In this document: piece after piece, positions 6,160 through 56,735 of the stretch
Position numbering within the stretch: the stretch's first letter is position 1
Layout of the letters: each line of letters begins with the position of its first letter
Assembly: GCA_009995595.1 (NCBI GenBank)
Contig: JAACPE010000003.1
Span: 12,871-76,870 of the forward strand
Length of the DNA stretch: 64,000 bases
Origin: Alphaproteobacteria bacterium
GTDB lineage: Bacteria; Pseudomonadota; Alphaproteobacteria; Micavibrionales; Micavibrionaceae
Reading direction: 5' to 3'
The notes under the pieces: generated by a model
The model's input: the letters and a program-made list of their open reading frames with translations, nothing else
What the model was told of the DNA's origin: nothing
Database searches by the model: none
Position numbers and translations under genes: made by a program

Positions 6160-7083
6160 TTAAAAAAGCTCCAGCAACATACAGCGTGCAGAGCCACCGC
6201 CATATTTTTCGATTGTTGGAATATCAGGCGTAATCACTGTTTTGTAATATTTTCTGATTTTTTCAATTTGCTCCTGATTGAGAGCATTAAAACCAGAGGC
6301 GGACATCACCAGCATTTCTTGTGCTTTTTTACCATCAGGGTATCCAATTACCTGAAGGGAGTTCCCGCAGAAATGTTCCATTTGTTCGTTGGTAAATTCA
6401 ATAACGTCATGCGTTTGCGTGAGCTTGGCAATGACATCACGGGTTTCAAGACATTCAGAACATATCCCCGCAAGCTCTGTCCCGATCCACATCACAACAT
6501 CGGTATGATAGACGGGTTTGCCGCGGTGCATTGTATCAAAAGGCACGTGTTCAAAGCCATTCATCTTGCACCACATTTTGGCAAGGTCGTCATGGCTGCG
6601 CTCTGATCTTGCGTGGTAGGCGATACGGTTGACGCGGTCTAAACACAGCGCCCCTGTGCTTTCCAGATATTTATGATGTTGCTCATGGAGTGAGAAATCT
6701 TGCACGTCTTTGTAGCTGCGCTTTAGAAATTCGATGAGATCGGCGCGGCGTTCAAGCTGACGGTTGGGCGCAAGCATCGGATAAAGCACCATACGCGGTT
6801 TGCCCGTTTCGGTCATATGAGTGGACACCCAGTTATTACAGAAAATATCATCCGGGCTATCGGGAACGCCTTTCACGGTTGTGATGATCACGCCTTTTTC
6901 AGCCAGCATGTCGCGAAACGTCCTAAACTCCATAACGGCTTTTTGATGGATTGTGCGTGTATCGGCATCATCTTCGTGCTGATATGAATTTGTCGGCATG
7001 GTTTGTGGGTTGGCATGAAAGAGCCCTGGCTCCATCACCATTATATGATTGGTTGATTGTTTGTTTTTAGCCGTACCAGACAT
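6160..7083 (-). CDS. Guanidino-group-modifying enzyme superfamily protein (arginine deiminase / amidinotransferase-related)
   Basis: The C-terminal GGGSARCM catalytic-Cys motif is typical of this superfamily. I place the start at ATG 7083 (MSGTAKNK...), 6 nt after an AAGGA Shine-Dalgarno, rather than at the ORF-track start 7125. Confidence 0.65.
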   Translation of the reverse strand: MSGTAKNKQSTNHIMVMEPGLFHANPQTMPTNSYQHEDDADTRTIHQKAVMEFRTFRDMLAEKGVIITTVKGVPDSPDDIFCNNWVSTHMTETGKPRMVLYPMLAPNRQLERRADLIEFLKRSYKDVQDFSLHEQHHKYLESTGALCLDRVNRIAYHARSERSHDDLAKMWCKMNGFEHVPFDTMHRGKPVYHTDVVMWIGTELAGICSECLETRDVIAKLTQTHDVIEFTNEQMEHFCGNSLQVIGYPDGKKAQEMLVMSASGFNALNQEQIEKIRKYYKTVITPDIPTIEKYGGGSARCMLLELF

Positions 7084-7247
7084 TATTATTCCTTTTAATT
7101 GCGTAAAATTGCTCATGAACCACAAGAGTTGACTTTAGCACTTGACGGGGGATGATATTCCGTGCGAAAGCACTGCGAACAGTGTACCTTGGAATGAACA
7201 AGAGTTCACTTATTTTATTAAATCTTTTGCGTTGAATTGACCCCATA

Positions 7248-11188: not shown

Positions 11189-12766
11189 ATGATTAAAGAC
11201 GTCAATTTAGGCGGTTCCCTCGGCGGAACATTAAACAGCATCAAGCGAGCGAGCGCGCAAGTTGAGCAGACTTCCTTGCGCCTGAATACTGGCAAGCGTG
11301 TTAATTCCGTTTTAGATCAGCCCCAAAATTTCTTTAACGCCTTTTCCCTTAATAACGATGCCAGTGATTATTCAAGATTGATTGATGGCCTAAGCATGGG
11401 CACGCGCACTGTCCAAGCATCATTATCGGGTTTAGAGGCGATTGAAAAAGTATTGCGCCTTGCTGAAAATAGAGCGCTTGAGGCGGCAACAACTTTAGAA
11501 AATACTAAATCGGCTCTACCCAATGCGATTTTGGCCGACAACCCGGTTGGATATTATCAGCTTTATGATGCAGATCGCATCGAGGCGGTGAATATTGGAT
11601 CACTCGCAGGGGATCCCAATGGCAATGGAACGTATATTAACGGTGTTTCCCAAGGCAAAGAGATTTTATTTTATGGCGCAGGCGGTCTCGCCGCAAAATT
11701 TGACGGTAACCAACAATATATTGGAATCTTGCCTAACGACTCCATCAATACCGCTGGGCCTTATGATGAAAAGACAATTGAGCTGACGTTTAATGCCGAC
11801 ACAGTTGCAGGGCGGCAAGTCTTGTTTGAAGAAGGGGGGCCCGTTAATAACCTTAATATTTATATTGATAATGGGCAGGTCTATGTGAATGGTCGTTCAA
11901 CTTTCGGCGGCGGATGGGGACCATTTAATATTAGCGCGCCAATCGAAGCGGGTGTGACCTATCAGGTTGCACTTGTGCTTGATGCCAATAACAACCGATT
12001 TTCCGGCGTGTTGAACGGCGAAGAATTTGGGTCAGCCTTCCTACCCGCCCCCATCGGAAGCCACCCCAATAGAAACGCAATTGGCGCGATTAATCAGGAT
12101 ATTTATTTCCATGATGACGGGCCAGGCAATGCACCAACGAACCGCCCCGATGGATCGTTCGCGTTTCGCGGCGAGATATCCGATGTCGCTTTTTATAACG
12201 ATGTGATTTCATTAGAAGGCTTACGCGCACGCTATGAGGCAACGTCCCTGCCCCTTGCTGAGCGTTTTCGGACCGAGATCATCGAGTTTATGAACCAGAT
12301 TAGCGGCATTGTCGAAGATAGCGCGTTTCGGGGTGTGAACTTACTTCAAGAAGATGAGTTACGTGTTGACTTAAACCAAGACCGATCGAATAAATTAGAA
12401 ATTAAAGGCGGTAATTTTTCATTAGAGTCGTTGGGTCTTGATGAAATTTCATTCCAAAAGCCATCACAAACCGAAGCGTCCATCCGAAAAATTCGTGAGG
12501 CGATTGAAACAATCCGTGAGTACACGTCAAAACTGACGAGCGATATTAATATCATTAATATGCGTGAAACATTCACGCGTGAGAAAATAAATACCCTTAA
12601 AGCGGGCGCTGATGATTTAACGCTCGCGGATATTAATGAAGAGGCGGCCAATCAACTCTCAGCGCAAACACGCTTGGAGCTTAGTGTGACGGCACTCTCA
12701 CTCGCTACTGCCTCGCAACAGAGCATTCTCACCCTTTTTAGCAATGGAACAGGGCAGGTTATCTAA
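11189..12766 (+). CDS. Flagellin-family protein with an inserted LamG/concanavalin-like central domain
   Basis: The N-terminus (LNTGKRVNSVLDQPQNFFNA...) and C-terminus (DDLTLADINEEAANQLSAQTRLELSVTALSLATASQQSIL) match the Bradyrhizobium-type flagellin D0/D1 helices. The centre (PVGYYQLYDAD...DPNGNGTYINGV...AAKFDGNQQYIGI...TIELTFNAD...FRGEISDVAFYN) reads like a Laminin_G_3 jelly-roll. Confidence 0.8.
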   Translation: MIKDVNLGGSLGGTLNSIKRASAQVEQTSLRLNTGKRVNSVLDQPQNFFNAFSLNNDASDYSRLIDGLSMGTRTVQASLSGLEAIEKVLRLAENRALEAATTLENTKSALPNAILADNPVGYYQLYDADRIEAVNIGSLAGDPNGNGTYINGVSQGKEILFYGAGGLAAKFDGNQQYIGILPNDSINTAGPYDEKTIELTFNADTVAGRQVLFEEGGPVNNLNIYIDNGQVYVNGRSTFGGGWGPFNISAPIEAGVTYQVALVLDANNNRFSGVLNGEEFGSAFLPAPIGSHPNRNAIGAINQDIYFHDDGPGNAPTNRPDGSFAFRGEISDVAFYNDVISLEGLRARYEATSLPLAERFRTEIIEFMNQISGIVEDSAFRGVNLLQEDELRVDLNQDRSNKLEIKGGNFSLESLGLDEISFQKPSQTEASIRKIREAIETIREYTSKLTSDINIINMRETFTREKINTLKAGADDLTLADINEEAANQLSAQTRLELSVTALSLATASQQSILTLFSNGTGQVI

Positions 12767-39387: not shown

Positions 39388-40485
39388 ATGCCCATTTATC
39401 TAGATTACAACGCCACCGCGCCCATGCGTCCAGAAGTCCGTGATTTGGTTATTCGTGTCATGGAAGGCGTGGGTAATGGCTCATCCGTCCATGCCTATGG
39501 CCGCGCTGCACGAAAATATATTGAAGACGCCCGCGCCCAAGTGGCCGATCTATGCGTCGCAACCCCTGAGCAAGTGACCTTTACCAGCGGCGCGACAGAA
39601 AGCATTAACACCGTCCTTCATCATTTTCGCGGTAAGCGCATTTTGGTCTCAAGTATCGAACACCCCGCCGTTTTACAATCGGCGCCCGATAGCGAGCAAA
39701 TCCCCGTTACTACAAATGGCGTGATTGATTTAAATGCGCTTGAGGCGTTATTGAAAGCAGAGCCAACCGCGCTTGTTTGCGTCATGCTGGTTAATAGTGA
39801 AACAGGCGTGATCCAGCCCGTCGCCGAGGCCGCGCAATTAGCACATGATCACGGCGCACTTTTATTCGTAGACGCCGTGCAGGCCGCAGGGCGCATTAAT
39901 ATCTCTCTCAACAAACTCGGCGCAGATTACATGGCGCTGTCAGCGCATAAAATGGCAGGGCCGCAAGGCGTTGGTGCGCTCATCACGAAATCAGGATTAG
40001 AGACTCCGCGCTTTATGCTTGGCGGAGGCCAAGAGAAAAATTGCCGCGCAGGGACGCATAATACCGCAGGGATTGCAGGCATGGGTTTGGCCGCGCAGAT
40101 CGCAAAAGATAGCATCACGCACTATGATGAAACCATTACAAAAATGCGCGATGACATGGAAGAAAAAATCCGCGCGCTCACCAATGGCATTAAAATTTAT
40201 GGCGATCATATGCCGCGTGTCGGTAATACATCAAATATCGGCCTTCACGGCGTACCCGCACAAACGCAAATGATGGCGCTTGATCTTGATGGCATTGCTG
40301 TATCCAGCGGATCAGCATGCTCTAGCGGTTCTTTTAAGCCCTCGCACGTGCTCACCGCCATGGGCGCCGATGAAAGCGAGGCCAAAAGTGCCTTGCGCAT
40401 TTCGATGGGGTGGAATACAACGCAACACGATATAGATACGTTTTTAAACAGCTACACCAAGATCATAAAAAGAACACAAGCATAA
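39388..40485 (+). CDS. Cysteine desulfurase (class V aminotransferase, NifS/IscS-like)
   Basis: PLP-Lys motif SAHKMAGPQG and catalytic-Cys loop SSGSACSSG. Confidence 0.9.
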   Translation: MPIYLDYNATAPMRPEVRDLVIRVMEGVGNGSSVHAYGRAARKYIEDARAQVADLCVATPEQVTFTSGATESINTVLHHFRGKRILVSSIEHPAVLQSAPDSEQIPVTTNGVIDLNALEALLKAEPTALVCVMLVNSETGVIQPVAEAAQLAHDHGALLFVDAVQAAGRINISLNKLGADYMALSAHKMAGPQGVGALITKSGLETPRFMLGGGQEKNCRAGTHNTAGIAGMGLAAQIAKDSITHYDETITKMRDDMEEKIRALTNGIKIYGDHMPRVGNTSNIGLHGVPAQTQMMALDLDGIAVSSGSACSSGSFKPSHVLTAMGADESEAKSALRISMGWNTTQHDIDTFLNSYTKIIKRTQA

Positions 40486-40494
40486 GGAAGACCA

Positions 40495-40833
40495 ATGCCA
40501 AAAATTCATTTCATCATGAAAGACGCAAGCACCAAGGACGTCGATGCCCCTCTTGGCTTATCCCTCATGGAAGTTGCTGTGAAAGAGAAGATTGAGGCCA
40601 TTGAGGGCGCATGTGGCGGCGGCTTGGCCTGTGCCACCTGTCATCTTTATGTTGATCCCAAGTTTAAAGATAAAACCATGCCGATTGACGGCGAGATTTC
40701 CGAAGACGAAGAAGACATGCTCGACCTCGCCTTCGATGTGCGAGATGAATCACGCCTATGCTGTCAGATTATTATCACGGAAGACCTAGACGGCCTTAGA
40801 GTGGCAATGCCGGGCGCTGAGGTAGAGTGGTAG
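40495..40833 (+). CDS. fdx: Adrenodoxin-type 2Fe-2S ferredoxin
   Basis: CGGGLACATCH plus the downstream C in LCCQI. 112 aa. Confidence 0.9.
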   Translation: MPKIHFIMKDASTKDVDAPLGLSLMEVAVKEKIEAIEGACGGGLACATCHLYVDPKFKDKTMPIDGEISEDEEDMLDLAFDVRDESRLCCQIIITEDLDGLRVAMPGAEVEW

Positions 40834-40852
40834 ATATACTGCTTAAAGCCTC

Positions 40853-41878
40853 TTAGTTAGGTCGCTTATTATCTTGCCTAATATCTGCACAGACACCGCA
40901 TGCTTTTTTACCAACCTCTATGATTTTTTCATTCTGCCCTTTTCGAATTTCTTGCCAGCCCAGTATCTTTTCAGGTGTTACATAATTAAAAAGAGGGTCG
41001 CCACTCCAAACACCCGATGACTGCCTGTCTGCTTTTTTGCTTCCGCCCAGATGTATTAAAGTCCCGCCCAAAGCTTCTTTTTGGCCCCATTGTTTTAGCA
41101 TTACTTCGTCAGCATCCGGGTTAGAGCCCATAGGTAAACATACATATACTCTATTCATCCATTGTAAATGTGAGGTTGCATCAAAGGCTTTTTCAAAGGG
41201 GCGCATTTCTATTTCACTTGTAATATGGCCTTTTGATTTTTGGCGTAAAAAATGACTATATATATTTTGTAAAACCTGTGGATCTGGATGCGTGAACACA
41301 ATTTTTTGTGCCGCCCCTTTTCTGTTATTGCTTAAATACTTCACGATATTTTCTGTAAGATCATCAGGCTTTGATCTGGATTTATCGGAATTAACAACAA
41401 CTAAAACGGTATCCGCTCCAGTTTGTTGTGATAACTCATGTGCACAAGCCTCATAAAAGGCAGGCTTTAAGTTATACGTAACAATGTTCCTTACCAGACC
41501 ATTGTCATGGATGATACTTCTATAGAAACGATTAAATTCTGTCGCTAAAGCTGGTGCTCTATCATGCCATTCACGATAAGCCCCTTTAAATTGCGATACA
41601 ATTTGGCTCTCACCTCTCGTGCGACTAATAAGACCAGTGACATAGGTAAGCATATGTTTGTAGGCATCTCTTCCCGTATAGACAACAACACCTTCATGAT
41701 TTTCAGGCAAAAAGCGTAAAGCATCGATACGGCCTAACAAAACTTCTCTTCTGCATCCTTTAAGATACATTAAATCTTGTTCGTCGCGTAACCGTCTAAA
41801 TTCATCAGAGAAAGACTGCGGTTTGATATCAAGCAATACTAGCTCTCTGGTGACAGGTTTTTTTTCTCTAATGTTCAT
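40853..41878 (-). CDS. Divergent glutamyl-tRNA reductase (HemA)-like protein lacking the NADPH glycine loop
   Basis: The following segments align by eye to GluTR motifs: YLKGCRREVLL to STCNRxEiY (catalytic Cys), TRGESQIVSQFKGAY to GExQILGQVKxA, and TVLVVVNSDKS to the VLViGAGEMG position, with no Gly. The start at ATG 41878 follows an AAGGA Shine-Dalgarno. The gene looks AT-rich compared with its neighbours. Confidence 0.5.
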   Translation of the reverse strand: MNIREKKPVTRELVLLDIKPQSFSDEFRRLRDEQDLMYLKGCRREVLLGRIDALRFLPENHEGVVVYTGRDAYKHMLTYVTGLISRTRGESQIVSQFKGAYREWHDRAPALATEFNRFYRSIIHDNGLVRNIVTYNLKPAFYEACAHELSQQTGADTVLVVVNSDKSRSKPDDLTENIVKYLSNNRKGAAQKIVFTHPDPQVLQNIYSHFLRQKSKGHITSEIEMRPFEKAFDATSHLQWMNRVYVCLPMGSNPDADEVMLKQWGQKEALGGTLIHLGGSKKADRQSSGVWSGDPLFNYVTPEKILGWQEIRKGQNEKIIEVGKKACGVCADIRQDNKRPN

Positions 41879-42203
41879 TAATTTTATCCTTGTGAAGGAC
41901 AAATTATCTTTATTTAAGAAATATGTCAATAAAAAGTACTTTTTAATGATTATATTCCTATAAATAGTCACACTATTCAGTTATACTTTGTACATGTAAA
42001 CACCCCCGCAAAACGCATCACCCCGCTCCTATCCCCCCAAAAAACGAACTAAACGAGAATCGTTTTATATCAAGGGCTTCACCCCCCACCCTATGCTTGT
42101 CAGCCGAACGAACTAAAGGAAGCATTACGCGCGCGTTAAATCAGGACCAAATCGTATCGTTTTTCTTGCTTTTTGGGCACTCTTGCCCTTATAAAAGGCC
42201 ATA

Positions 42204-43361
42204 ATGAATAGTTTAGGCATCAACAAAGACCCAAAAGACACACGCGTTGTCGTCGCCATGAGCGGCGGCGTTGATAGCTCTGTCACGGCTGCGCTGCTCC
42301 ATGAGCAAGGTTATGATGTTGTGGGTGTCACGCTCCAACTTTATGATTACGGCAAAGCGGTGGAGCGCAAAGGCGCGTGCTGCGCGGGCCAGGATATCTA
42401 TGATGCCAAGCGCGTCGCCGAAGAAAAAGGCTTCCCGCATTATGTCCTCAATTACGAGGATAATTTCCGTGAAAGTGTCATGGATGATTTCGCCGATAGT
42501 TATATGAAAGGCGAAACGCCAATCCCTTGCGTGCGCTGTAACCAAACCGTCAAATTCCGTGACCTGTTCAAGGTCGCCCAAGATTTAGGCGCCGATTGTA
42601 TGGCAACAGGGCATTACATTAAGCGCGTTATCAACGAGCAAACAGGCCAAGCCGAGCTGCACCGCGCGGTTGATGGCGGCAAAGATCAAAGCTATTTCCT
42701 TTTTGCCACAACGCAAGACCAGCTTAACTTCTTACGCTTTCCCCTTGGCGCGTGGACAAAAGATGTTACGCGCGAGCATGCGCAGCGCCTCGGCCTTTTG
42801 GTTTGTGACAAACCCGATAGCCAGGACATTTGCTTTGTTCCCAATGGCGATTATGCCTCTGTCGTTAAGAAAATAAGACCAGAGGCCGAAAAGCATGGCA
42901 CGATCGTGGATATGAACGGCGCGGTCATGGGCGCGCATCAAGGCGTTATTCATTACACCATCGGACAGCGCCGCGGCCTTGGTATTGGCGGGGGTCATAA
43001 TGATGACAACTCCCCTTTTTATGTCGTTAAAGTTGACCCGATTGCCAACCAAGTCATTGTTGGCCCAAAAGAGGCTCTTGCTCGTGACATTATAACGATT
43101 AATCAATGCAATTGGCTGATTGAAATCCCTCATGATGGCCTTGATGTCATGGTGAAATTGCGCTCAGTCAGTAAGCCCTCACCTGCGCGCCTGCACAATA
43201 ACGCCGATGGTACCGCCCAGATCCACTTGCAAAACCCACAATACGGTATTGCGCCCGGTCAGGCCGGCGTTTGTTATGGCGTCGACGACATGGATGACCG
43301 CGTTTTAGGCGGCGGCTGGATTATCGAAAGCCAAAATTCATCGATGCCGATTGCCGCTTGA
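42204..43361 (+). CDS. mnmA: tRNA 2-thiouridine(34) synthase
   Basis: PP-loop [10 protein letters not shown] and conserved Cys residues (PCVRCN, DICF). 385 aa. Confidence 0.95.
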
Positions 43362-43406: not shown

Positions 43407-43482
43407 GGCGGTGTAGCTCAGTGGTTAGAGCAGAGGAATCATAATCCTTGTGTCCGGAGTTCAAATCTCTGCACCGCCACCA
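43407..43482 (+). tRNA. tRNA with CAU anticodon (elongator Met; a lysidine-modified Ile2 cannot be excluded)
   Basis: Hand-folded cloverleaf: acceptor GGCGGTG/CACCGCC, D arm GCTC-AGTGGTTA-GAGC, anticodon arm GAGGA-ATCATAA-TCCTT, T arm CGGAG-TTCAAAT-CTCTG, discriminator A and an encoded CCA. Total 76 nt. There is no 1:72 mismatch and no GGG/CCC anticodon stem, so it is not an initiator. Confidence 0.9.
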
Positions 43483-43599: not shown

Positions 43600-44667
43600 A
43601 TGCGCACAACAGAAGAAGAAAACATAGGTATTTTAAAAACCATCTGGAAAAAGGGTGAAAATGGCTCTTGGTCTGGTCATGATTTGCAAGGAATTGATCT
43701 AAAACCTCGTGAAGGATTTGAAAAGGACTATTTCAAAATCGAAAGTGAAATGACCCTAATGACTCAAAGTCCTGGTCCTATTATGGACAATCTCTTCGCA
43801 ACATTTGGTATGACTGAATTTTTAGTTCGACAAAGTATCGTGCCTATCGTTGCGTGGAATGATGGTGATAAAGAAATGCGTTGTATCGGCACGGGTTTTT
43901 TTATTAGTGCTTCGGGTTTACTTCTAACTGCGGCACACGTAATTCGTGATCCAGTTGATGAAAATTATACAAATCTAACGCAGGTTGGTGAAAAATCACA
44001 AAGACTTGGAAATGATTTGCGCTATGGAATTTTATTACCTGCCAACCCTGCAATGAAGGGCGCACCTTTTCTTAAGCCTTCACCAATGCATGATGCAAAA
44101 TGGTTTATGTGCCCGTTTGAATGGGCGCTTCACTGGGGTAAAGATCACGAAAGCCCTTTACCATCTCAAAAACCAGAATTTAAATTAGATATAGATATCG
44201 CGGTTTGTAAAGTAAGTGAACACGACTTCATAGGTCCCTATCAACCATTGAATATAGGATTACACAATCTAAAACTTGATGATAAAGCCGTGGCAATTGG
44301 TTACCCTGAAATGAGAAATATTCGACTAAACGGTGACGATTATCAACCTGAACTAACAGTTTCTGTTGGCTCGGTGACAGCCATTTATCATGATAACATT
44401 ACAGAAAAACAAAATTCAACGGACGGACCAAATTTTGAATTTAACGCAAAGATACCTGGCAAAATGAGCGGTAGTCCTATTTTAGTTGGTGGTGGAATTA
44501 TAACGAAAGGTGTTGTTAGTAGAAGCTTAGGTAGTGAAGCAAACCACGCTACTGGATGTTTGATTTCCTCTATGATGGAACTGCCTTTAATGAAAGGAAA
44601 AAGACTCTTAAATTTAATGGACGATGGCACAGAGGGTATTGCCAAGTTTGTAGGTAGTGGGCTTTAA
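43600..44667 (+). CDS. Trypsin-like (S1/PA clan) serine protease without a signal peptide
   Basis: Catalytic triad contexts GLLLTAAHV (His), DIDIAVCKV (Asp) and PGKMSGSPIL (Ser). There is an N-terminal extension of about 90 aa. The gene is AT-rich and lies directly after the tRNA. Confidence 0.75.
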   Translation: MRTTEEENIGILKTIWKKGENGSWSGHDLQGIDLKPREGFEKDYFKIESEMTLMTQSPGPIMDNLFATFGMTEFLVRQSIVPIVAWNDGDKEMRCIGTGFFISASGLLLTAAHVIRDPVDENYTNLTQVGEKSQRLGNDLRYGILLPANPAMKGAPFLKPSPMHDAKWFMCPFEWALHWGKDHESPLPSQKPEFKLDIDIAVCKVSEHDFIGPYQPLNIGLHNLKLDDKAVAIGYPEMRNIRLNGDDYQPELTVSVGSVTAIYHDNITEKQNSTDGPNFEFNAKIPGKMSGSPILVGGGIITKGVVSRSLGSEANHATGCLISSMMELPLMKGKRLLNLMDDGTEGIAKFVGSGL

Positions 44668-45249: not shown

Positions 45250-46002
45250 TTAGAAAGACATAAAGAAGCCGCCATTGACCCCAAGATTGGTTCCAGAGAT
45301 ATAGCTAGCACGTTCATCGCAGAGCGCCAGAACGGCATAGGACACTTCCTCTGGTCTGGCCATACGCCCCATCGGCACGTGACCGACAATTTTATCAAGG
45401 ATTTCGGCATTCATTTGACCAACTGTCATATCCGTTTCAACATAACCGGGAGAGATTGTATTCACTGTTACGTTTTTGCGGGACATTTCCTGAGCTAAGG
45501 CCATTGTAAAACCATGCACCCCTGCCTTTGCGGCCGAATAGTTGGTTTGTCCAAACTGCCCCTTTTGCCCGTTAACAGAGGAGATATTTATAATACGCCC
45601 AAATTCATTGTCATGCATACCATCAATAAATTGCTTGGTGACGTTATAAACACCCGTCAAGTCAATATTAATAACAAGATTCCACATATCGGGTTCCATT
45701 TTACGCAAGGTTTTATCGCGTGTCACACCGGCACAATTAATTAGTGTATCAACAAAATCATGGTCTTTTTTGATGATTTCCGCCATTTTGACGCAAGAGT
45801 CAAAATCAGCAACATCCCCCGGAACAATGAAGACTCTGCCTTCATGTCCCGATTGATGTTTTTTGAGCCACTCCTGTGCGTGCTTTTCTTCAGCAGGATA
45901 GTAATTGGCTATCACCGTGTAGCCATTTTCAAGGAAATCCTTACAAATGGCTGATCCGATTCCGCCAACGCCACCAGTCACAAGAGCAGTTCTTTTTCTC
46001 AT
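45250..46002 (-). CDS. phaB: Acetoacetyl-CoA reductase
   Basis: TALVTGGVGGIGSAI and YSAAKAGVHGF motifs. The start is ATG 46002 after a GGAG Shine-Dalgarno; the ORF-track start is a TTG at 46017. Confidence 0.9.
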   Translation of the reverse strand: MRKRTALVTGGVGGIGSAICKDFLENGYTVIANYYPAEEKHAQEWLKKHQSGHEGRVFIVPGDVADFDSCVKMAEIIKKDHDFVDTLINCAGVTRDKTLRKMEPDMWNLVINIDLTGVYNVTKQFIDGMHDNEFGRIINISSVNGQKGQFGQTNYSAAKAGVHGFTMALAQEMSRKNVTVNTISPGYVETDMTVGQMNAEILDKIVGHVPMGRMARPEEVSYAVLALCDERASYISGTNLGVNGGFFMSF

Positions 46003-46017
46003 AATAAATCGCTCCAA

Positions 46018-46398
46018 TTACGCTGCTTTTTTCGCTACATTGGCAACAGAAGAGGCTGCTTTGTTGGCAGCATCCATGTTGGCTTCAAACATTTCCGCAT
46101 AGGATTTGCTTGCTTCAGCAAGAATGTCCGCGCAAGAGCGTGCTGATTTCATAATCTGTTTGCCTGTTTCTTCAGCCATAGCAGATTGCTTTTTCATGAT
46201 GTCCTGTGGATCTTTGGAAGAAGACATAGTTTCCATCATCTTTGCGCCATCAGCAGCCATTGATTTACAGAGATTCATTTGCTCTTGTATCAATTTCTCG
46301 CTCATACGCATGTTGTTTTCTGTCAGTTTTTTGATGGCTTCAAAAGAGGACTTGTTCCAGTTCATTAAATACTCGAATGCTTCGTTTGTGTTTGTCAT
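46018..46398 (-). CDS. phaP: Phasin-family PHA granule protein
   Basis: 126 aa, helical and rich in Ala/Glu/Lys/Met, sitting between phaR and phaB. Confidence 0.7.
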   Translation of the reverse strand: MTNTNEAFEYLMNWNKSSFEAIKKLTENNMRMSEKLIQEQMNLCKSMAADGAKMMETMSSSKDPQDIMKKQSAMAEETGKQIMKSARSCADILAEASKSYAEMFEANMDAANKAASSVANVAKKAA

Positions 46399-46420
46399 GA
46401 TATTCTCCTAAAAGTATGAG

Positions 46421-46443
46421 GCAACAATATTGTTGCACTGCAC
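46421..46443. promoter_or_regulatory. Candidate PhaR operator upstream of phaP
   Basis: The perfect 16-bp palindrome GCAACAATATTGTTGC (46421..46436) overlaps TGTTGCACTGCAC (46431..46443). The same TGTTGC-NN-TGCAC 13-mer recurs upstream of phaE. Confidence 0.45.
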
Positions 46444-46484
46444 AATAATAGAAGAAAAATAGAAAATTTCAAGGAAAATAAGGA

Positions 46485-47006
46485 TTATTTTTTAGTTTTT
46501 TTATCAGATTCTGTTGATTTGTCAGAATGCGCCCCAACCGATTTGAAGAAATTTTCCTGCATTTTCTGCCAAAAATCAAGGTTGCCTTGGGCAATATCAG
46601 TCAAAGTGTTGATAGCCTGTTTTCCGACCAGCTTGTCCATCTGATTCTGGAACAAATTCTGTTGCTCCGTGAAAAGTTTGAAATTGCGCTCCAGAAACTC
46701 TGAAAAAACGAGCCGTGTTCCCTCATCATAATGACGAATAAAATCGGAGAGCATATCCGTGGTAAAAAGCGGACGCTCCCCGCTTTCCTGCTCGATAATA
46801 ATCTGCACCAGGACGCTTCGGGTGATATCCTCGTCTGTCTGGGCATCCAGAACTTGAAAAGACTCTCCCCTGCGAATCAAAGCGAGAATATCAGAAAGGA
46901 CAATATACCGGCTTTCGGCTGTATCATACAGACGGCGATTGGCATATTTCTTAATGAGTCGGGGCTGATCAGACAATGAAAATTTAATCCATATGCTGTC
47001 CGCCAT
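46485..47006 (-). CDS. phaR: PHA synthesis repressor PhaR
   Basis: LIKKYANRRLYDT N-terminal motif. The likely start is ATG 47006 (MADSIW...), which overlaps the end of phaB2 by 23 nt. Confidence 0.85.
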   Translation of the reverse strand: MADSIWIKFSLSDQPRLIKKYANRRLYDTAESRYIVLSDILALIRRGESFQVLDAQTDEDITRSVLVQIIIEQESGERPLFTTDMLSDFIRHYDEGTRLVFSEFLERNFKLFTEQQNLFQNQMDKLVGKQAINTLTDIAQGNLDFWQKMQENFFKSVGAHSDKSTESDKKTKK

Positions 47007-47778
47007 TGGCGGCAATATTTGAGCCTGTGATAAAGCCAGATGAATCGGAGACAAGAAATTCAATGATATGCGCTATCTCTTCCGGCTTACCCAAACGACC
47101 CACTGGAATTTGTGCAATAATATTGTTACGCACATCTTCAGGCACGGCCATCACCATATCAGTGGCGATATATCCGGGGGAAATGGTGTTGACCGTAATA
47201 CCCTTGCGAGCGACCTCCTGAGCCAATGCCTTGGTAAATCCATGCATACCAGCTTTTGCAGCGGAATAGTTGGTTTGTCCGAACTGTCCTTTTTGGGCGT
47301 TAATTGAAGAAATATTGATGACACGGCCATAACCGCGATCCAGCATGCTTTCAATGACACACCGCGTGACATTGAAGACACTGTCTAGATTGCAGGTCAT
47401 CACATCACGCCATTGCTGGACATTCATTTTCTTAAATGTTGAATCCTTTGTAATACCAGCATTATTCACCAGAATATTGATAGGGCCGTAATCTTGCTCA
47501 ATCAGGGAGACCATGGACTGACAGGATGCAAAATCAGAAACATCACAGGCCTTTACAATCGGCTCATAGCCCATTTGGCGCATTTCCTCTTGCCATGCTT
47601 TTGCTTTTTCTTCGTTCCGGTAAGTTGTTATGACCAGACAGCCCATATCACACAGTTTTTTACAGATGGCAGAGCCTATTCCCCCTGTCCCTCCTGTCAC
47701 CAGAGCAATTTTACGAACGGGCTCAGCCTTGGGAGGAGCTTGGGTATCATTAGCAATTTTTTTGAGGGCTACGGTCAT
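46984..47778 (-). CDS. Second acetoacetyl-CoA reductase-like SDR
   Basis: IALVTGGTGGIGSAI and YSAAKAGMHGF motifs. It is a paralogue of the 45250..46002 product with a 20-aa N-terminal extension. Confidence 0.85.
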   Translation of the reverse strand: MTVALKKIANDTQAPPKAEPVRKIALVTGGTGGIGSAICKKLCDMGCLVITTYRNEEKAKAWQEEMRQMGYEPIVKACDVSDFASCQSMVSLIEQDYGPINILVNNAGITKDSTFKKMNVQQWRDVMTCNLDSVFNVTRCVIESMLDRGYGRVINISSINAQKGQFGQTNYSAAKAGMHGFTKALAQEVARKGITVNTISPGYIATDMVMAVPEDVRNNIIAQIPVGRLGKPEEIAHIIEFLVSDSSGFITGSNIAANGGQHMD

Positions 47779-47896
47779 GGGAAGGCGTCCTTTTTAAAAA
47801 AAAATTTAAATAAAAAATTTACAGGATGTTGATTTAGAAATACCTTACAAACACGCAGAAATGCAAGGAAAAAAGCTGTATGTAACGAATATAATA

Positions 47897-47909
47897 TGTT
47901 GCGATGCAC
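47897..47909. promoter_or_regulatory. Second copy of the TGTTGC-NN-TGCAC motif, in the phaB2/phaE divergent promoter
   Basis: TGTTGCGATGCAC lies 50 nt upstream of the phaE ATG and is flanked by ATAT-rich sequence like the copy at 46431. Confidence 0.4.
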
Positions 47910-47958
47910 CATTATATGGTCTAAAGATAATTGAATAATTCTCAAAAAAGGAAACATC

Positions 47959-49053
47959 ATGTCAGAGGCAAAAAATTTTAATGCAAACGATATTCTTAAT
48001 TCACAACGCGCTTTTATGGAGGGCTGGCTGTCTATGATGGGGGGCGCGCCGTCACAAGCAAAAAATTCAGAAGAACAAAAAGATGGCAACTGGCATTCAT
48101 TTATGGCGCAGATCAGACAAGCTAGCCAGACTTATTTTGAGATGGCGCAGCGTTTTACATCACTTTCCAATGATAATCTATCTATTGATCAGATTGCACA
48201 GGATTGGATAAACCAAATGACAGCCCTCTTTTCAGGTATGATAAATCAACCCGCCCCCCGTGCGGAAGACATGATGAAAAATCCAAACAGTTTTTCTTTC
48301 CTGTTTCCATTTACAGGAAACGCCTTTAACAAAATCTATCGCTCAGGTGATTTTTCCGTCGTGCAAGGATTTTTCGAAGAACAGATAGAACAATATCTGG
48401 CCATGCCTTCCCTTGGCTATAACCGCAAGTCACAAGATGAATACAAAAAATTTATCGCGCTCATGATGTCATATCAAAAGACTACGAATGACTACAATAA
48501 GGCTATGGGGAAAGTCGGGTTAGAGGCGCTGGCGGCGTTTCAGCTGAAGCTGGTTCAGGAAATGAACAAGGAGGAGAAAAACCTCTCTTTAAAAGATATC
48601 TATGATCTTTGGACCATGGCAGCAGAAGAGGTTTACGGCGCCTATGTCGTCACAGAGGCTTACACGGTTCTTTACGGCCAGATGATCAATAGTATGATGG
48701 CGCTCAAGCAACAGGCATCCCTCATGATGGATGGTGTATTGGAGTCCATGAATATCCCGACCCGCACAGAGGTCGATACCCTCAGCAAAAAAGTTCACGC
48801 AATCAAAACAACTTGTGACCGCTTGATTCCCGATGAATTTGAAAAGATGCAACAGCAGATTGAAGCACTGCAAAAGCAAATGGGAGTAAAGCGGGCTGTG
48901 ATCAAAGCAGCGCCCGCAGCAAAACCAGGCGTGAAAAAGTCTACAAAGAAAATTGTTAAGGCATCGGCAAAAACAGCCGTAAAAAAAGCAGCGCCTAAAA
49001 ATCAGCCTGCATCCAGCAAACAATCCAGAAACACAAAAAAGAAAGGGAAGTAA
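47959..49053 (+). CDS. phaE: Class III PHA synthase subunit PhaE
   Basis: LAMPSLGYNRKSQDEYKKF and DLWTMAAEEVYGAYVVTEAYTVLYGQMINSMMALKQQ...MNIPTRTEVDTL align closely with my recollection of Allochromatium vinosum PhaE. The tail is Lys/Ala/Pro-rich. Confidence 0.8.
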   Translation: MSEAKNFNANDILNSQRAFMEGWLSMMGGAPSQAKNSEEQKDGNWHSFMAQIRQASQTYFEMAQRFTSLSNDNLSIDQIAQDWINQMTALFSGMINQPAPRAEDMMKNPNSFSFLFPFTGNAFNKIYRSGDFSVVQGFFEEQIEQYLAMPSLGYNRKSQDEYKKFIALMMSYQKTTNDYNKAMGKVGLEALAAFQLKLVQEMNKEEKNLSLKDIYDLWTMAAEEVYGAYVVTEAYTVLYGQMINSMMALKQQASLMMDGVLESMNIPTRTEVDTLSKKVHAIKTTCDRLIPDEFEKMQQQIEALQKQMGVKRAVIKAAPAAKPGVKKSTKKIVKASAKTAVKKAAPKNQPASSKQSRNTKKKGK

Positions 49054-49056
49054 TCC

Positions 49057-50127
49057 ATGATACAGTCCGGATATTTTAACCCTCAGCAATTGGCTCAGGA
49101 AATCACCAGCTTTAATCAGAAATTTGTAAAAGGCCTGGATAATCTGAAAAAAATTCAAAATATTCCTGCCGGTGTGACCGAAAAAGAAATCGTCTTTCAA
49201 AAAGACAAGGTGACACTGTATCACTACAAACCCCATATTAAACAAAAGCAAAAGAATAATCGTCCTCTATTAATTTGTTATGCGCTGGTGAACCGTCCTT
49301 ACATGACAGATATTCAGGAAAACCGCTCAACCGTTCGCGGATTGATGGAGGCAGGTCAGGATGTTTATCTCATTGACTGGGGGTATCCTGATCGAACAGA
49401 CAAATATCTGACCATGGATGATTACATCAACGGTTATCTTGATTTATGCGTCAAGGAACTATGCAAACGTCACAATCTTGACGCGATTGATCTTTTAGGG
49501 ATCTGTCAGGGAGGAGCGTTCAGCTTATGCTACGCCGCCATGCATCCGCAAAACATTCATAAGCTAATTACCATGGTAACACCGGTTGATTTTCATACGC
49601 CCGATAATACCCTGACGCACTGGATCAAAAATGTTGATGTGGATTTATTAGTCGACACCATGGGAAATATTTCTGGGGATGATATGAACTGGACATTTTT
49701 ATCCATGAAGCCGTTTGAGCTGATGGGGCAAAAATATCTGAACATGGTCGAAATTATGCAAGACGAGGCCACATTGCAAAATTTTATGCAGATGGAACAA
49801 TGGATCTTCGATAGCCCCGATCAGGCAGGCGAAACCTACCGCCAATTTATCAAGGATTTTTATCAAAAAAATCTCCTGATCAAGGGTGAGGTAAAAATCG
49901 GTGCTCATCAGGTGGATTTGAAAAATATCACCATGCCTGTCCTTAATATTTATGCCAAGGATGACCATCTGGTTCCACCCAGCGCGTCTATGGCGCTAAA
50001 AAAATATGTTGGAACAAAAGATTATACCGAATTATCATTCAATGGCGGTCATATCGGGATCTATGTCAGTGGCAGGGCGCAAAAGGAAGTTCCGCCCGCT
50101 ATCGGCAAATGGTTAAACGCAGCATAG
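49057..50127 (+). CDS. phaC: Class III PHA synthase catalytic subunit PhaC
   Basis: 356 aa with the lipase-box GICQGG. Long identical stretches to A. vinosum PhaC as I recall it (YALVNRPYMTDIQE, DVYLIDWGYPD, WIFDSPDQAGET, GGHIGIYVSG). Confidence 0.9.
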   Translation: MIQSGYFNPQQLAQEITSFNQKFVKGLDNLKKIQNIPAGVTEKEIVFQKDKVTLYHYKPHIKQKQKNNRPLLICYALVNRPYMTDIQENRSTVRGLMEAGQDVYLIDWGYPDRTDKYLTMDDYINGYLDLCVKELCKRHNLDAIDLLGICQGGAFSLCYAAMHPQNIHKLITMVTPVDFHTPDNTLTHWIKNVDVDLLVDTMGNISGDDMNWTFLSMKPFELMGQKYLNMVEIMQDEATLQNFMQMEQWIFDSPDQAGETYRQFIKDFYQKNLLIKGEVKIGAHQVDLKNITMPVLNIYAKDDHLVPPSASMALKKYVGTKDYTELSFNGGHIGIYVSGRAQKEVPPAIGKWLNAA

Positions 50128-50154
50128 AAAAAATCGGAAACAGGAAAGAGTGAT

Positions 50155-51333
50155 ATGAAATCTGTCTACATAGTTGAGGCTCGCCGCACGCCTATTGGAG
50201 CCTTTCAAAAAGGATTATCCTCTCTAACTGCTGCGGAGCTTGGCGCCAGCATTATTGAAGGTCTTTTGAATAAAACTGGACTAGATCCTGCGGCGATTGA
50301 GCTGTGTATCATGGGTCAGGTGTTACAGGCCGGATACGGGATGAACCCCGCCCGTCAGGCAGCCTTGAAAGGCGGCCTGAAACAGGAAACAACCGCTTAC
50401 ACCATCAATCAGGTTTGCGGGTCAGGCATGCGCAGCATTTTTGACGGAGCTGGGCAGATTATGACGGGGCAGGTTGACCTTGCGCTTGTCGGCGGTATGG
50501 AAAGTATGTCCCGCGCCCCCCACGTGGCGGAGCTGCGCCCAGGGTGCAAATTCGGCTCCGTTGAAATGAAAGACACCATGCTGATTGATGGCTTGTGGGA
50601 CATCTTCAATGATTACCACATGGGCATAACAGCAGAAAATCTTGCCGAAAAATTCGGCATCTCACGCGAGGCACAGGATCAATTCTCTGCCGACTCACAG
50701 ACAAAAGCAGCCAAGGCGCAATCCGAGGGACGCTTTCGGGATGAAATCATCCCCGTCACAATAAAAACCCGTAAGGAGGATATAGTCGTTACAGAGGATG
50801 AATCCATACGCGCCGATACCACAGCAGACTCCCTTGCGGCTTTGAAGCCTGCCTTTAAAAAAGATGGTACGGTAACAGCAGGTAATGCCTCCACGCTTAA
50901 TGATGGTGCTGCGGCTTTAATCCTTGCTAGTGAAGAGGCTATAAAAAAATATAATTTAACGCCTTTGGCGCGTATTGTATCAATTGGGCAGGCAGGGGTG
51001 GACCCTGCTATTATGGGTCACGGCCCTGTTCCTGCCTCCCGCTCTACTCTTGAAAGGGCTGGGTGGAAAGTCAATGATCTTGATCTGGTTGAGAGTAACG
51101 AGGCGTTTGCCGTTCAATCCTTGTGCGTTATGAAGGAAATGGACTTTGACCCGTCTAAAGTCAATGTCAATGGTGGCGCGATTGCCTTGGGCCACCCGAT
51201 CGGGTGTAGTGGATCACGGATTGTAGTCACACTTATTCATGAAATGCATAAGCGTAACGCGGCCAAGGGACTTGCGACTTTATGCATAGGCGGTGGAATG
51301 GGAATTGCGCTGACGGTTGAAATAGCAAAATAA
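50155..51333 (+). CDS. phaA: Acetyl-CoA C-acetyltransferase (beta-ketothiolase)
   Basis: Thiolase active-site Cys context [10 protein letters not shown] and the C-terminal [17 protein letters not shown]. Confidence 0.9.
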
Positions 51334-55406: not shown

Positions 55407-56735
55407 TTAAATAAGGCTCTGTAATAAATCAGCGATAGAAGTATCTTGCTGCGAGAGGATAGAGATTTGTATGGATTGACGGGTTTGAAGGGAGATCATC
55501 TCTGCTCCCGCCTCGTTCAAATCCGTTAAGGTTAAATCCTCACTGCCGTTTTTGAGAGTGTTAATTGATTTTTGTGTAAAATCGAGCCGAGTTTGGATGA
55601 TGTTTAAATCACTCGCGATTGTGGCGTTATATTCGCGTAAAGTTTCCCGCGCCTCGCGCACTTGCCCGAGGGATGTTCTTAAACGGTTTAAGCTTTGAAA
55701 GCTGCGATCTGTCAAGCCAAGGCCGAGTGAAGTCCCATCTATCCCTTCCGTTTCAAGAAAATTTGTGCGCGGCGCGTTAAAATCTGTTCGAAGATCATCT
55801 GAATCAAGCAAATTAATGCCGCGATAACTGGCATCTTCGACCAGCGCATCAAGCTGATTGAGAATTTCATTATATTGAGCCTCATATTGCGCGGCGCGTT
55901 CCTGTTTGTCGCGGGGCAAAAGCACGTCATTGCCTTCAAAAAAAGTCACGTTAGTAAAGGTTGCGTTTCCATTGGCGGGCGCTGCGTCATGGTCATTGAT
56001 GAAGGTGATAAAGTTAAAATCACCTGTAAAAAACTGCCCCACGGGAATTTCAATTGAGACAACATCGCCAGAGCGATCATATTCAAAAGTTGGTTGAGGC
56101 GCGGCGTAAGAAATTCCGCCATTTTGTGTTCCGTTTAAGAAAAAGAAATTAGGGTTATTGGAAAAATTATTATCATTATCAAAGCCAATAGCAGAAATTT
56201 CCGGCAATATCGTGCTTTGATAATCAAACCTCAAAATCGTATTTTCTGTGATGGTGTATCCAAAATCAAGGCGCTTCCAGTTATTGCCCGAAAACGTGAT
56301 ATCTAAACCGCCATTGGCCAGCGACACTGTCCCGCCCCCGTCTTGAGCCCCTGCGTAAGGAATAAAATCAGCGATGCTGTCAGGGATAATTGTAGGTTCA
56401 GGTTCGCCGCCACTGGGAAAAAGTTCAATTTCAGCCTCAATCAATAACGCCTCTGCTTGATCAATCAGTTTTTGTACGGCGCGAATGGCGATGTCCGTTT
56501 CTTGTATCGTACGGGTACTTTGACCGATTGTATCAAGGAGCCTGTTTAAATCCGAGGCGGAGCTTGTTAAAGATTTAGCATTAAAAAAATTACTCGGGTT
56601 ATCAAGAGCTTTATTGACGTCTTTACCACTGGCAAGTTTAAGCTGCGTGGTGTCAATGTCACGCTGTACATTCTTAATTGCCGTGAGCTGTTTTGATTGA
56701 GCCCCCGACAGAATGTTGCCAATTTTGTTTATCAT
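55407..56735 (-). CDS. Flagellin-family protein 2 with a different inserted beta-sandwich domain
   Basis: The N-terminus (LASGKDVNKALDNPSNFFNAKSL...) and C-terminus (EDLTLTDLNEAGAEMISLQTRQSIQISILS) are of the same flagellin type as the 11189 gene. The centre (LDITFSGNNWKRLDFGYTITENTILRFDYQS...EISAIGFDNDNN...) is unrelated to the LamG insert. Confidence 0.8.
   Translation of the reverse strand: MINKIGNILSGAQSKQLTAIKNVQRDIDTTQLKLASGKDVNKALDNPSNFFNAKSLTSSASDLNRLLDTIGQSTRTIQETDIAIRAVQKLIDQAEALLIEAEIELFPSGGEPEPTIIPDSIADFIPYAGAQDGGGTVSLANGGLDITFSGNNWKRLDFGYTITENTILRFDYQSTILPEISAIGFDNDNNFSNNPNFFFLNGTQNGGISYAAPQPTFEYDRSGDVVSIEIPVGQFFTGDFNFITFINDHDAAPANGNATFTNVTFFEGNDVLLPRDKQERAAQYEAQYNEILNQLDALVEDASYRGINLLDSDDLRTDFNAPRTNFLETEGIDGTSLGLGLTDRSFQSLNRLRTSLGQVREARETLREYNATIASDLNIIQTRLDFTQKSINTLKNGSEDLTLTDLNEAGAEMISLQTRQSIQISILSQQDTSIADLLQSLI

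Follow-up and report, generated by a model that had tools for sequence, protein, structure and literature searches.

The analyzed stretch of DNA, called the window in the following, comprises 64,000 nucleotides of contig JAACPE010000003.1 from an alphaproteobacterium. On its minus strand lies a coding sequence (CDS) for a protein of 341 amino acids that very probably descends from glutamyl-tRNA reductase (GluTR) and is devoid of the NADPH motifs of that enzyme. This gene is referred to as the target gene. The gene and the parts of its product are arranged as follows.

40853..41878, minus strand: CDS of the GluTR-like protein, 341 amino acids, start codon ATG at 41878-41876 and stop codon TAA at 40855-40853, under purifying selection.
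41474..41878, minus strand: residues 1-135, homologue of the N-terminal catalytic domain of GluTR (Pfam GlutR_N, hhalign, AlphaFold2 and Foldseek).
41738..41764, minus strand: LKGCRREVL, aligned with LSTCNRVEI of GluTR; the codon of Cys42 is at 41755-41753, and Arg44 corresponds to the Arg of TCNR.
41588..41635, minus strand: GLISRTRGESQIVSQF, aligned with GL(D/S)SMVxGExQIxxQ of GluTR and containing Gly82, Ser85, Glu90, Gln92 and Gln96.
40979..41458, minus strand: residues 141-300, Rossmann-like homologue of the NADPH domain found in GluTR and shikimate dehydrogenase, with the cofactor motifs replaced (hhalign, Foldseek).
41363..41410, minus strand: strand beta-1 and the following loop, TVLVVVNSDKSRSKPD, at the place of VLxxGAGxMG; the loop is glycine-free and longer.
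41282..41302, minus strand: IVFTHPD at the place of the NADPH 2'-phosphate motif xxxxNRT; T-H-P-D is a family signature.
40874..40975, minus strand: residues 302-335, a single long C-terminal helix with Asn316 and Arg334, remnant of the GluTR spinal helix (AlphaFold2, hhalign).
40880..40903, minus strand: the Cys pair ACGVCADI on the C-terminal helix, residues 326-333, clade-specific.

A relationship to GluTR had been proposed by eye in the first-pass annotation and was borne out by both profile and structure searches. The Pfam model GlutR_N matched residues 61-124 with 32.5 bits (cut-off 27, E 9e-8), covering positions 80-142 of the 151 model positions. The NCBIfam hemA equivalog TIGR01035 reached 19.2 bits against a cut-off of 209.55, other models gave at most 17 bits, and neither Pfam Shikimate_DH nor Pfam GlutR_dimer matched the target protein. 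A profile built from 15 close relatives and searched against the PDB gave a single informative match, the Methanopyrus kandleri GluTR (1gpj, E 3e-4). In this alignment 'tvlvvvntd' lies on TVLVVGAGE and His75 of the target protein on His84 of 1gpj. The AlphaFold2 (AF2) model calculated from the alignment of close relatives had a pLDDT (predicted local distance difference test) of 90 and a pTM (predicted template modeling score) of 0.79. Its two top Foldseek matches in the PDB were both GluTRs, namely 5che_B (E 2.3e-9) and 1gpj (E 4.6e-9, TM-score 0.62 over the whole query), followed by shikimate dehydrogenases with E values of 4e-4 to 1e-2.

Finally, 140 family members were aligned by hhalign with nine canonical GluTRs taken from the fetched loci, resulting in a probability of 98.3% (E 1.4e-14) over 245 columns. 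The following motifs were paired in this alignment.

LKGCRREV in the target protein with LSTCNRVE in canonical GluTR.
GLISRTRGESQIVSQFK in the target protein with GLSSMVIGENQIVSQFK in canonical GluTR.
VLVVVNSD in the target protein with VLLVGAGE in canonical GluTR.
IVFTHPD in the target protein with LFVTNRT in canonical GluTR.
VCLPMG in the target protein with IFSTSA in canonical GluTR.
LIHLGG in the target protein with VFIDIS in canonical GluTR.

The N-terminal domain of GluTR binds glutamate and the acceptor end of the tRNA. In this domain the suggested match of KGCRREV to the catalytic Cys motif TCNRxE holds at an equivalent position in the hhalign alignment, and that of the GExQI-type motif was recovered as well, since GESQIVSQF is aligned with GExQIxxQ by hhalign and by the 1gpj profile. 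In the second domain, VVNSDKSRSKPD and T-H-P-D stand where the GxGxxG loop and the N-R-T motif of the NADPH domain belong. The dinucleotide loop is indeed without glycines, as had been noticed from the sequence, with TVLVVVNSD in place of VLxxGAGE in both the hhalign and the 1gpj alignments. The hhalign alignment stops at residue 297. Beyond this residue the AF2 model contains one helix of 34 residues, compared to about 120 residues in canonical GluTR. Because this one helix alone follows, the protein lacks the dimerization domain and most of the spinal helix, and the reported loss of the C-terminal dimerization domain was thus verified. The Cys pair ACGVCADI was found as described, at residues 326-333, but it does not form the end of the protein, which continues with RQDNKRPN. 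Cys327 is invariant in the close clade alone; family-wide, Cys is found in 31% of the sequences at position 327 and in 61% at position 330.

For the identification of relatives, a word-indexed search and a hidden Markov model (HMM) search were used. The former yielded 14 relatives, none of them named. The latter was exhaustive over 1.84 billion cluster representatives (clusters of 50% identity) and retrieved 706 representatives at E<=1e-3, 214 at E<=1e-10 and 83 at E<=1e-30. Nearly all of the best 150 matches are about 350 amino acids in length and are matched over almost their full length, so that the family comprises at least 150 clusters at 50% identity.

Conservation was counted over 140 full-length sequences, which range down to about 20% identity with the target protein. 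Cys42 was found in 99% of the family (138/140), as were Tyr73, Gly82 and Asp125 with a frequency of 99% each. These are followed by Arg334 (96%), Glu or Asp in position 90 (95%), Trp264 (93%), Trp291 (91%), Arg44 (84%, 118/140), His276 (83%), Gln96 (79%) and Ser85 (73%). The T-H-P-D motif in positions 196-199 is conserved to 66-84% per position. A glycine-rich loop at the Rossmann position was identified in one of 139 full-length members. The pattern GxGxx[GA] occurs there in 2 of the 162 retrieved sequences, P0144 and P0156, both of which belong to a clade of short-form GluTRs described below.

No curated NCBIfam family was found for any member, and the family is not covered by any model of Pfam, NCBIfam or PADLOC. 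The PADLOC defence models gave no match for the target protein or for two family members. In the 572-amino-acid member P0077 an extra domain was sought, and none was recognizable. No source consulted gave a name to the relatives, and a literature search on GluTR-like proteins returned nothing relevant. Scans of metagenomes and genomes for the close clade revealed a sole genome-resolved relative, in a metagenome-assembled genome labelled Alphaproteobacteria. Otherwise the same scans returned canonical hemA genes, with Aquificota among the identifiable ones, and no new family loci. The family is an unnamed and widespread group, very probably GluTR-derived and monophyletic in the tree described below.

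A link to GluTRs of the working type is provided by the short-form clade (P0144, P0156 and P0173-P0187). Its members have a length of 281-319 amino acids, match Pfam GlutR_N and Shikimate_DH, and reach 64-77 bits with the hemA equivalog (cut-off 209.55). They retain G-A-G and N-R-[ST] and have no dimerization domain. Six residues, Y73, D125, W264, H276, W291 and R334, are common to the short forms and the target family and absent from canonical GluTR. Specific to the target family is the remodeled cofactor site with H-P-D, P-M-G and H-L-x-G. One short form, P0181 (L040:8001-8876), takes the hemA position of a C5 heme cluster: its stop codon overlaps the start of hemC, which is followed by hemB, hemL (NF000818, 565 bits) and hemE, and hemH and hemW are located upstream. 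Because of this position in a hemL-containing cluster, the short forms are almost certainly working reductases. The NCBI hemA equivalog models probably fail to recognize this minimal GluTR. We found no literature on the clade, which is unnamed.

In a crude neighbor-joining tree, all 139 members of the NADPH-less family and all 17 short forms grouped into one monophyletic clade each. The simplest history would be a short GluTR lineage without dimerization domain, followed by a single loss of the NADPH site and by wide diversification. Since the hallmark residues are shared with the probable short reductases, they are no argument against Glu-tRNA as ligand. The speculation in the first-pass annotation that the protein is a tRNA-directed enzyme is better founded now, because the related clade consists of short GluTRs of the working type in a heme operon.

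The target gene is flanked on both sides by genes of the opposite strand. The features surrounding it are the following.

41887..41891, minus strand: ribosome binding site AAGGA, 8 nt before the ATG.
41901..41929, minus strand: predicted sigma-70-type promoter with −35 TTGACA at 41929-41924, a spacer of 17 nt and −10 TAATTT at 41906-41901.
41948..41962, minus strand: upstream element TATAGGAATATAATC, about 20 nt upstream of the −35 hexamer, nearly invariant in four syntenic loci with divergent surrounding intergenic DNA.
42204..43361, plus strand: mnmA (tRNA 2-thiouridylase), divergent neighbor, syntenic in four genomes.
39388..40833, plus strand: nifS-like cysteine desulfurase gene (39388-40485) and 2Fe-2S ferredoxin gene fdx (40495-40833), convergent neighbors in a syntenic context.

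The ATG at 41878 was preferred as start codon over an upstream GTG at 41971, since the N-termini of the orthologues align with it and the AAGGA ribosome binding site is present. In the 120 bp upstream of the target gene, the promoter hexamer TTGACA is invariant in all four syntenic loci, which also have the 17-nt spacer, a TAATTT-like −10 motif and the element TATAGGAATATAATC. From this conserved predicted sigma-70-type promoter the target gene appears to be transcribed alone. The element TATAGGAATATAATC may serve as an UP element or bind a regulator. In the intergenic half next to mnmA (42020-42110), the G-rich runs GGTGGGGGGTGAAGCCC and TTGGGGGGATAGGAGCGGGGTG were observed, which are conserved with L037 and have no Rfam match. 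An Rfam search over the window identified the tRNA alone; neither a riboswitch nor a T-box was detected in the intergenic DNA.

Between the orthologues, the proportion of synonymous differences (pS) was 0.74-0.85, which is saturated, versus 0.19-0.33 for nonsynonymous differences (pN). The gene is under strong purifying selection and is a functional resident of the genome. Of the two options raised earlier, a relic or a neofunctionalized copy, the second is supported by this selection and by the Cys kept in 138 of 140 members, and the first was dropped. The block tyrS-YhdP-bcp-hydrolase-nifS-fdx-target gene-mnmA is kept in two relatives, whose copies of the target gene product are 71% and 69% identical. 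In a third relative the block fdx-target gene-mnmA is kept (60% identity). In these three related genomes the divergence of the target gene falls between that of YhdP (56-74%) and that of mnmA (83-94%).

The clustering of the nifS-like desulfurase, ferredoxin and mnmA genes (39388-43361), with the target gene in between on the opposite strand, recalls the dedicated desulfurase-MnmA pairs for tRNA 2-thiolation.

The target gene has a GC content of 0.395 and a GC content at third codon positions (GC3) of 0.313, the second lowest GC3 among the 51 open reading frames (ORFs) of the window, which average 0.458 (sd 0.03) and 0.45 (sd 0.053), respectively. The five most GC-rich ORFs include fdx, the nifS-like gene and mnmA, so the gene is more AT-rich than its neighbors fdx and mnmA, as first described. 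Likewise, a tRNA gene bordering an AT-rich stretch was confirmed: tRNA-Met is located at 43407-43482, 1.5 kb from the start of the target gene, with a low-GC gene (43600-44667) after it. This gene (plus strand, directly after tRNA-Met) encodes a Trypsin_2-type serine peptidase and, at 0.278, shows the lowest GC3 of all ORFs of the window. In PADLOC its product is weakly matched by the protease components of RT-Protease_XI and LmuA (E ~1e-6).

In the first-pass annotation, the AT-richness and the nearby tRNA had hinted at a foreign islet. This hint was not upheld by the synteny, the neighbor-like divergence and the GC3 values at other loci. In 7 out of 7 other loci (L001, L003, L012, L016, L033, L035 and L037), the GC3 of the family gene is the lowest or near-lowest of its neighborhood, for example 0.35 versus 0.51-0.63 in L012 and 0.28 versus 0.29-0.50 in L016. 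The low GC3 extends to a member with just 28% identity to the target protein. Because it recurs in all family loci examined, the low GC is a lasting trait of the family and no mark of recent transfer. Weak expression is the simplest guess for this gene-specific AT bias. A repeat of the tRNA 3' end (att-like) that would delimit an integrated element was searched and none was found, nor was the target gene found in a plasmid scan or in a scan of viral contigs for the close clade.

Distant family members are located in unrelated contexts: beside FtsH, beside MscS and Der, beside GreA, in an arg cluster beside a membrane protein, and downstream of a TrmA-like gene. The latter locus (L038; 2072-2752 and 2809-4080) contains P0014, which is 44% identical to the target protein, and, 57 bp upstream in the same orientation, a gene of 226 amino acids resembling tRNA (uracil-5)-methyltransferases. 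Besides mnmA, this makes a second tRNA-modification neighbor. In the distant branch (L012:6822-7799, L014:6879-7844 and L039:3095-4060), a polytopic membrane protein of 321-325 amino acids without Pfam match is always divergently oriented to the family gene. There, argH is directly next in L012 and L014, while in L039 osmC lies before it; owing to their close relatedness, the three loci count as one observation. The membrane protein was considered as a conserved partner and rejected, as neither the window nor the other loci contain a homologue of it. No hem genes were found in the 64-kb window, nor adjoining the family gene in 10 other distinct loci.

The remaining genes of the window include flagellins, a TonB-dependent receptor and a class III polyhydroxyalkanoate (PHA) synthase. 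The window shows a free-living Gram-negative bacterium, in the setting of aquifer, groundwater and spring metagenomes. The PHA cluster (45250-51333) comprises two short-chain dehydrogenases/reductases of the acetoacetyl-CoA reductase type, a PhaR-like regulator, the class III synthase subunit PhaE, a PhaC-like hydrolase and a thiolase, together with a small helical ORF (46018-46398) judged by eye to be phasin-like. The product of 6160-7125 (minus strand) matches the eukaryotic-type dimethylarginine dimethylaminohydrolase family (DDAH_eukar, 251 bits). Two atypical flagellin-like proteins, encoded at 11189-12766 (plus strand) and 55407-56735 (minus strand), contain the flagellin N-terminal region alone. 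One of them has a weak Laminin_G_3 match below the Pfam cut-off (26.9 versus 27.6 bits).

In GluTR, the aminoacyl ester is attacked by the catalytic Cys, NADPH from the second domain reduces the resulting thioester, and the third domain dimerizes (PMC7242693, PMC3778395, PMC6399207). An esterase activity of GluTR was described when NADPH is not accommodated (PMC4726326). The explanation we favor, at slightly less than even confidence, is that the target protein is a functional member of a GluTR-derived family which forms a Cys acyl-enzyme from Glu-tRNA and releases it without reduction. The protein would still bind the glutamyl-CCA end of Glu-tRNA, and Cys42 would attack the ester to give a glutamyl-thioester. 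Since no hydride could arrive without an NADPH site, the acyl-enzyme would have to be resolved in a non-reductive way; on the conserved motifs, such a mechanism taken by itself is possible rather than probable. Two routes are conceivable. In the first, water would hydrolyze the thioester and the protein would act as a Glu-tRNA deacylase or esterase. In the second, the glutamate would be passed to an acceptor nucleophile held by the remodeled second domain, making the protein a glutamyl transferase.

The second route would imply a new class of aminoacyl-tRNA-dependent enzymes, in which Glu is taken from Glu-tRNA onto Cys42 and then handed to an acceptor in the remodeled Rossmann domain. We regard such a class as less likely than not. 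Conceivable acceptors range from metabolites and proteins to a nucleoside of a tRNA. In two independent loci the gene is adjacent to tRNA-modification genes (mnmA and the TrmA-like m5U methyltransferase). The substrates of MnmA include tRNA-Glu. If true, the protein would be a tRNA-dependent glutamyl transferase outside of translation and heme synthesis.

In the M. kandleri and E. coli enzymes, the equivalents of the pocket residues (S85, GExQI, Q96 and H75) serve in glutamate recognition. Several points weigh against a non-reductive use of Glu-tRNA. Gln92 and His75 are kept in the clade of the target protein and are variable across the family. For a Glu-tRNA hydrolase there is no obvious physiological rationale. 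Furthermore, gene neighborhoods are not conserved past the close relatives, so that no partner or acceptor is indicated. The net charge was also considered as a sign of RNA binding and was uninformative, with a pI of 9.2 for the target protein and a family median of 7.6.

A non-catalytic binder or regulator, i.e., a pseudoenzyme, is improbable as an alternative. It would sense or sequester Glu-tRNA, glutamate, heme or a partner (HemL, for example), and the Cys would be kept for ligand binding or redox sensing instead of acyl transfer. The loss of the cofactor site is typical of pseudoenzymes, the stand-alone gene with its own predicted promoter and variable neighborhood fits this role, and the low GC3 at every locus suits a weakly expressed accessory or regulatory gene. 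However, a Cys kept at 99% together with the Cys-x-Arg and GE motifs at about 20% identity would be unusual for a dead enzyme, and no conserved partner gene was found.

We assign a similarly low probability to an enzyme that employs the Cys and the glutamate-type pocket on a non-tRNA substrate, for which glutamyl or acyl thioesters, acyl phosphates and peptides are candidates. Here, tRNA binding would have been lost along with the dimerization domain. The absence of this domain and of most of the spinal helix is in line with such a change, as are the invariant residues Y73, D125, W264, W291 and R334, which differ from canonical GluTR. But the same hallmarks and the same truncation are present in the short-form GluTRs of the C5 heme operon with hemL, which must use Glu-tRNA, and because the short forms have both, neither feature argues against tRNA use.

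That the protein is a cryptic reductase is very unlikely. It would be a minimal GluTR making glutamate-1-semialdehyde for heme synthesis, with a non-canonical NAD(P)H binding mode or with a reductant from another protein. The related clade consists of short GluTRs of the working type, and 114 of 140 family members have Gly or Ala in position 162. D199 is located at the end of strand beta-2, where an Asp binds the ribose in NAD-dependent Rossmann enzymes. Against a reductase stand the missing GxGxxG and the lengthened loop, and also H-P-D in place of N-R-T, whose Asp would repel the 2'-phosphate of NADPH. The missing Shikimate_DH match and the hemA equivalog score of 19 bits versus 209.55 point in the same direction, as does the count of hem genes beside the family gene (0 out of 11 distinct loci).

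A foreign gene acquired recently or a decaying relic without host function, to which the low GC and GC3 and the tRNA-Met with another AT-rich gene 1.5 kb away had pointed, is scarcely credible given the intact frame under strong purifying selection, the kept synteny and promoter, the divergence within the range of the neighbors, the low GC3 of all family loci, the lack of a tRNA 3' end repeat, the absence from the scanned plasmids and viral contigs, and the lack of a defence-system match.

Returning to the acyl-enzyme explanation, very few enzymes are known to use aminoacyl-tRNA outside of translation; GluTR is the classic example, and the only chemistry known for it is reduction. As far as the alignments indicate, the family described here is old and diversified, having kept the apparatus that attacks the tRNA ester and discarded the reductant site. 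This suggests either that charged tRNA-Glu has an unrecognized use or that the first step of tetrapyrrole synthesis has a new regulatory paralogue. Labels such as 'glutamyl-tRNA reductase' transferred via GlutR_N would misname the genes of the family and over-predict the C5 pathway.

Compared to canonical GluTR (HemA/GtrR; TIGR01035; 1gpj, 5che), the target protein has the same N-terminal fold, Cys-x-Arg, GLxS...GExQIxxQ, an equivalent of His84, the Rossmann topology and the start of the long helix. In contrast, GxGxxG, N-R-T and the dimerization domain of the canonical enzyme are missing, with H-P-D at the place of N-R-T, and the loops S-T-x-A and D-x-x-x-P-R are changed to P-M-G and H-L-x-G. 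The residues Y73, D125, W264, W291 and R334 of the target family are not found in canonical GluTR, and the family gene, in contrast to the hemA context, was never found beside hem genes in 11 loci. The shikimate and quinate dehydrogenases (AroE/YdiB) resemble the second domain in fold (Foldseek E values of 4e-4 to 1e-2). They differ in having another N-terminal domain, and no match at the sequence level and no cofactor motifs are found in the target protein.

The short-form GluTR clade is like the target family in the six hallmarks, the [S/T/G]-C-x-R motif and the missing dimerization domain. It keeps GAG, N-R-[ST] and the place in the heme operon, whereas the target family has lost those motifs and forms a separate monophyletic group. 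With respect to the esterase activity of GluTR without NADPH (PMC4726326), the expected chemistry would be the same; a side reaction there, it would be constitutive in the target family or replaced by transfer.

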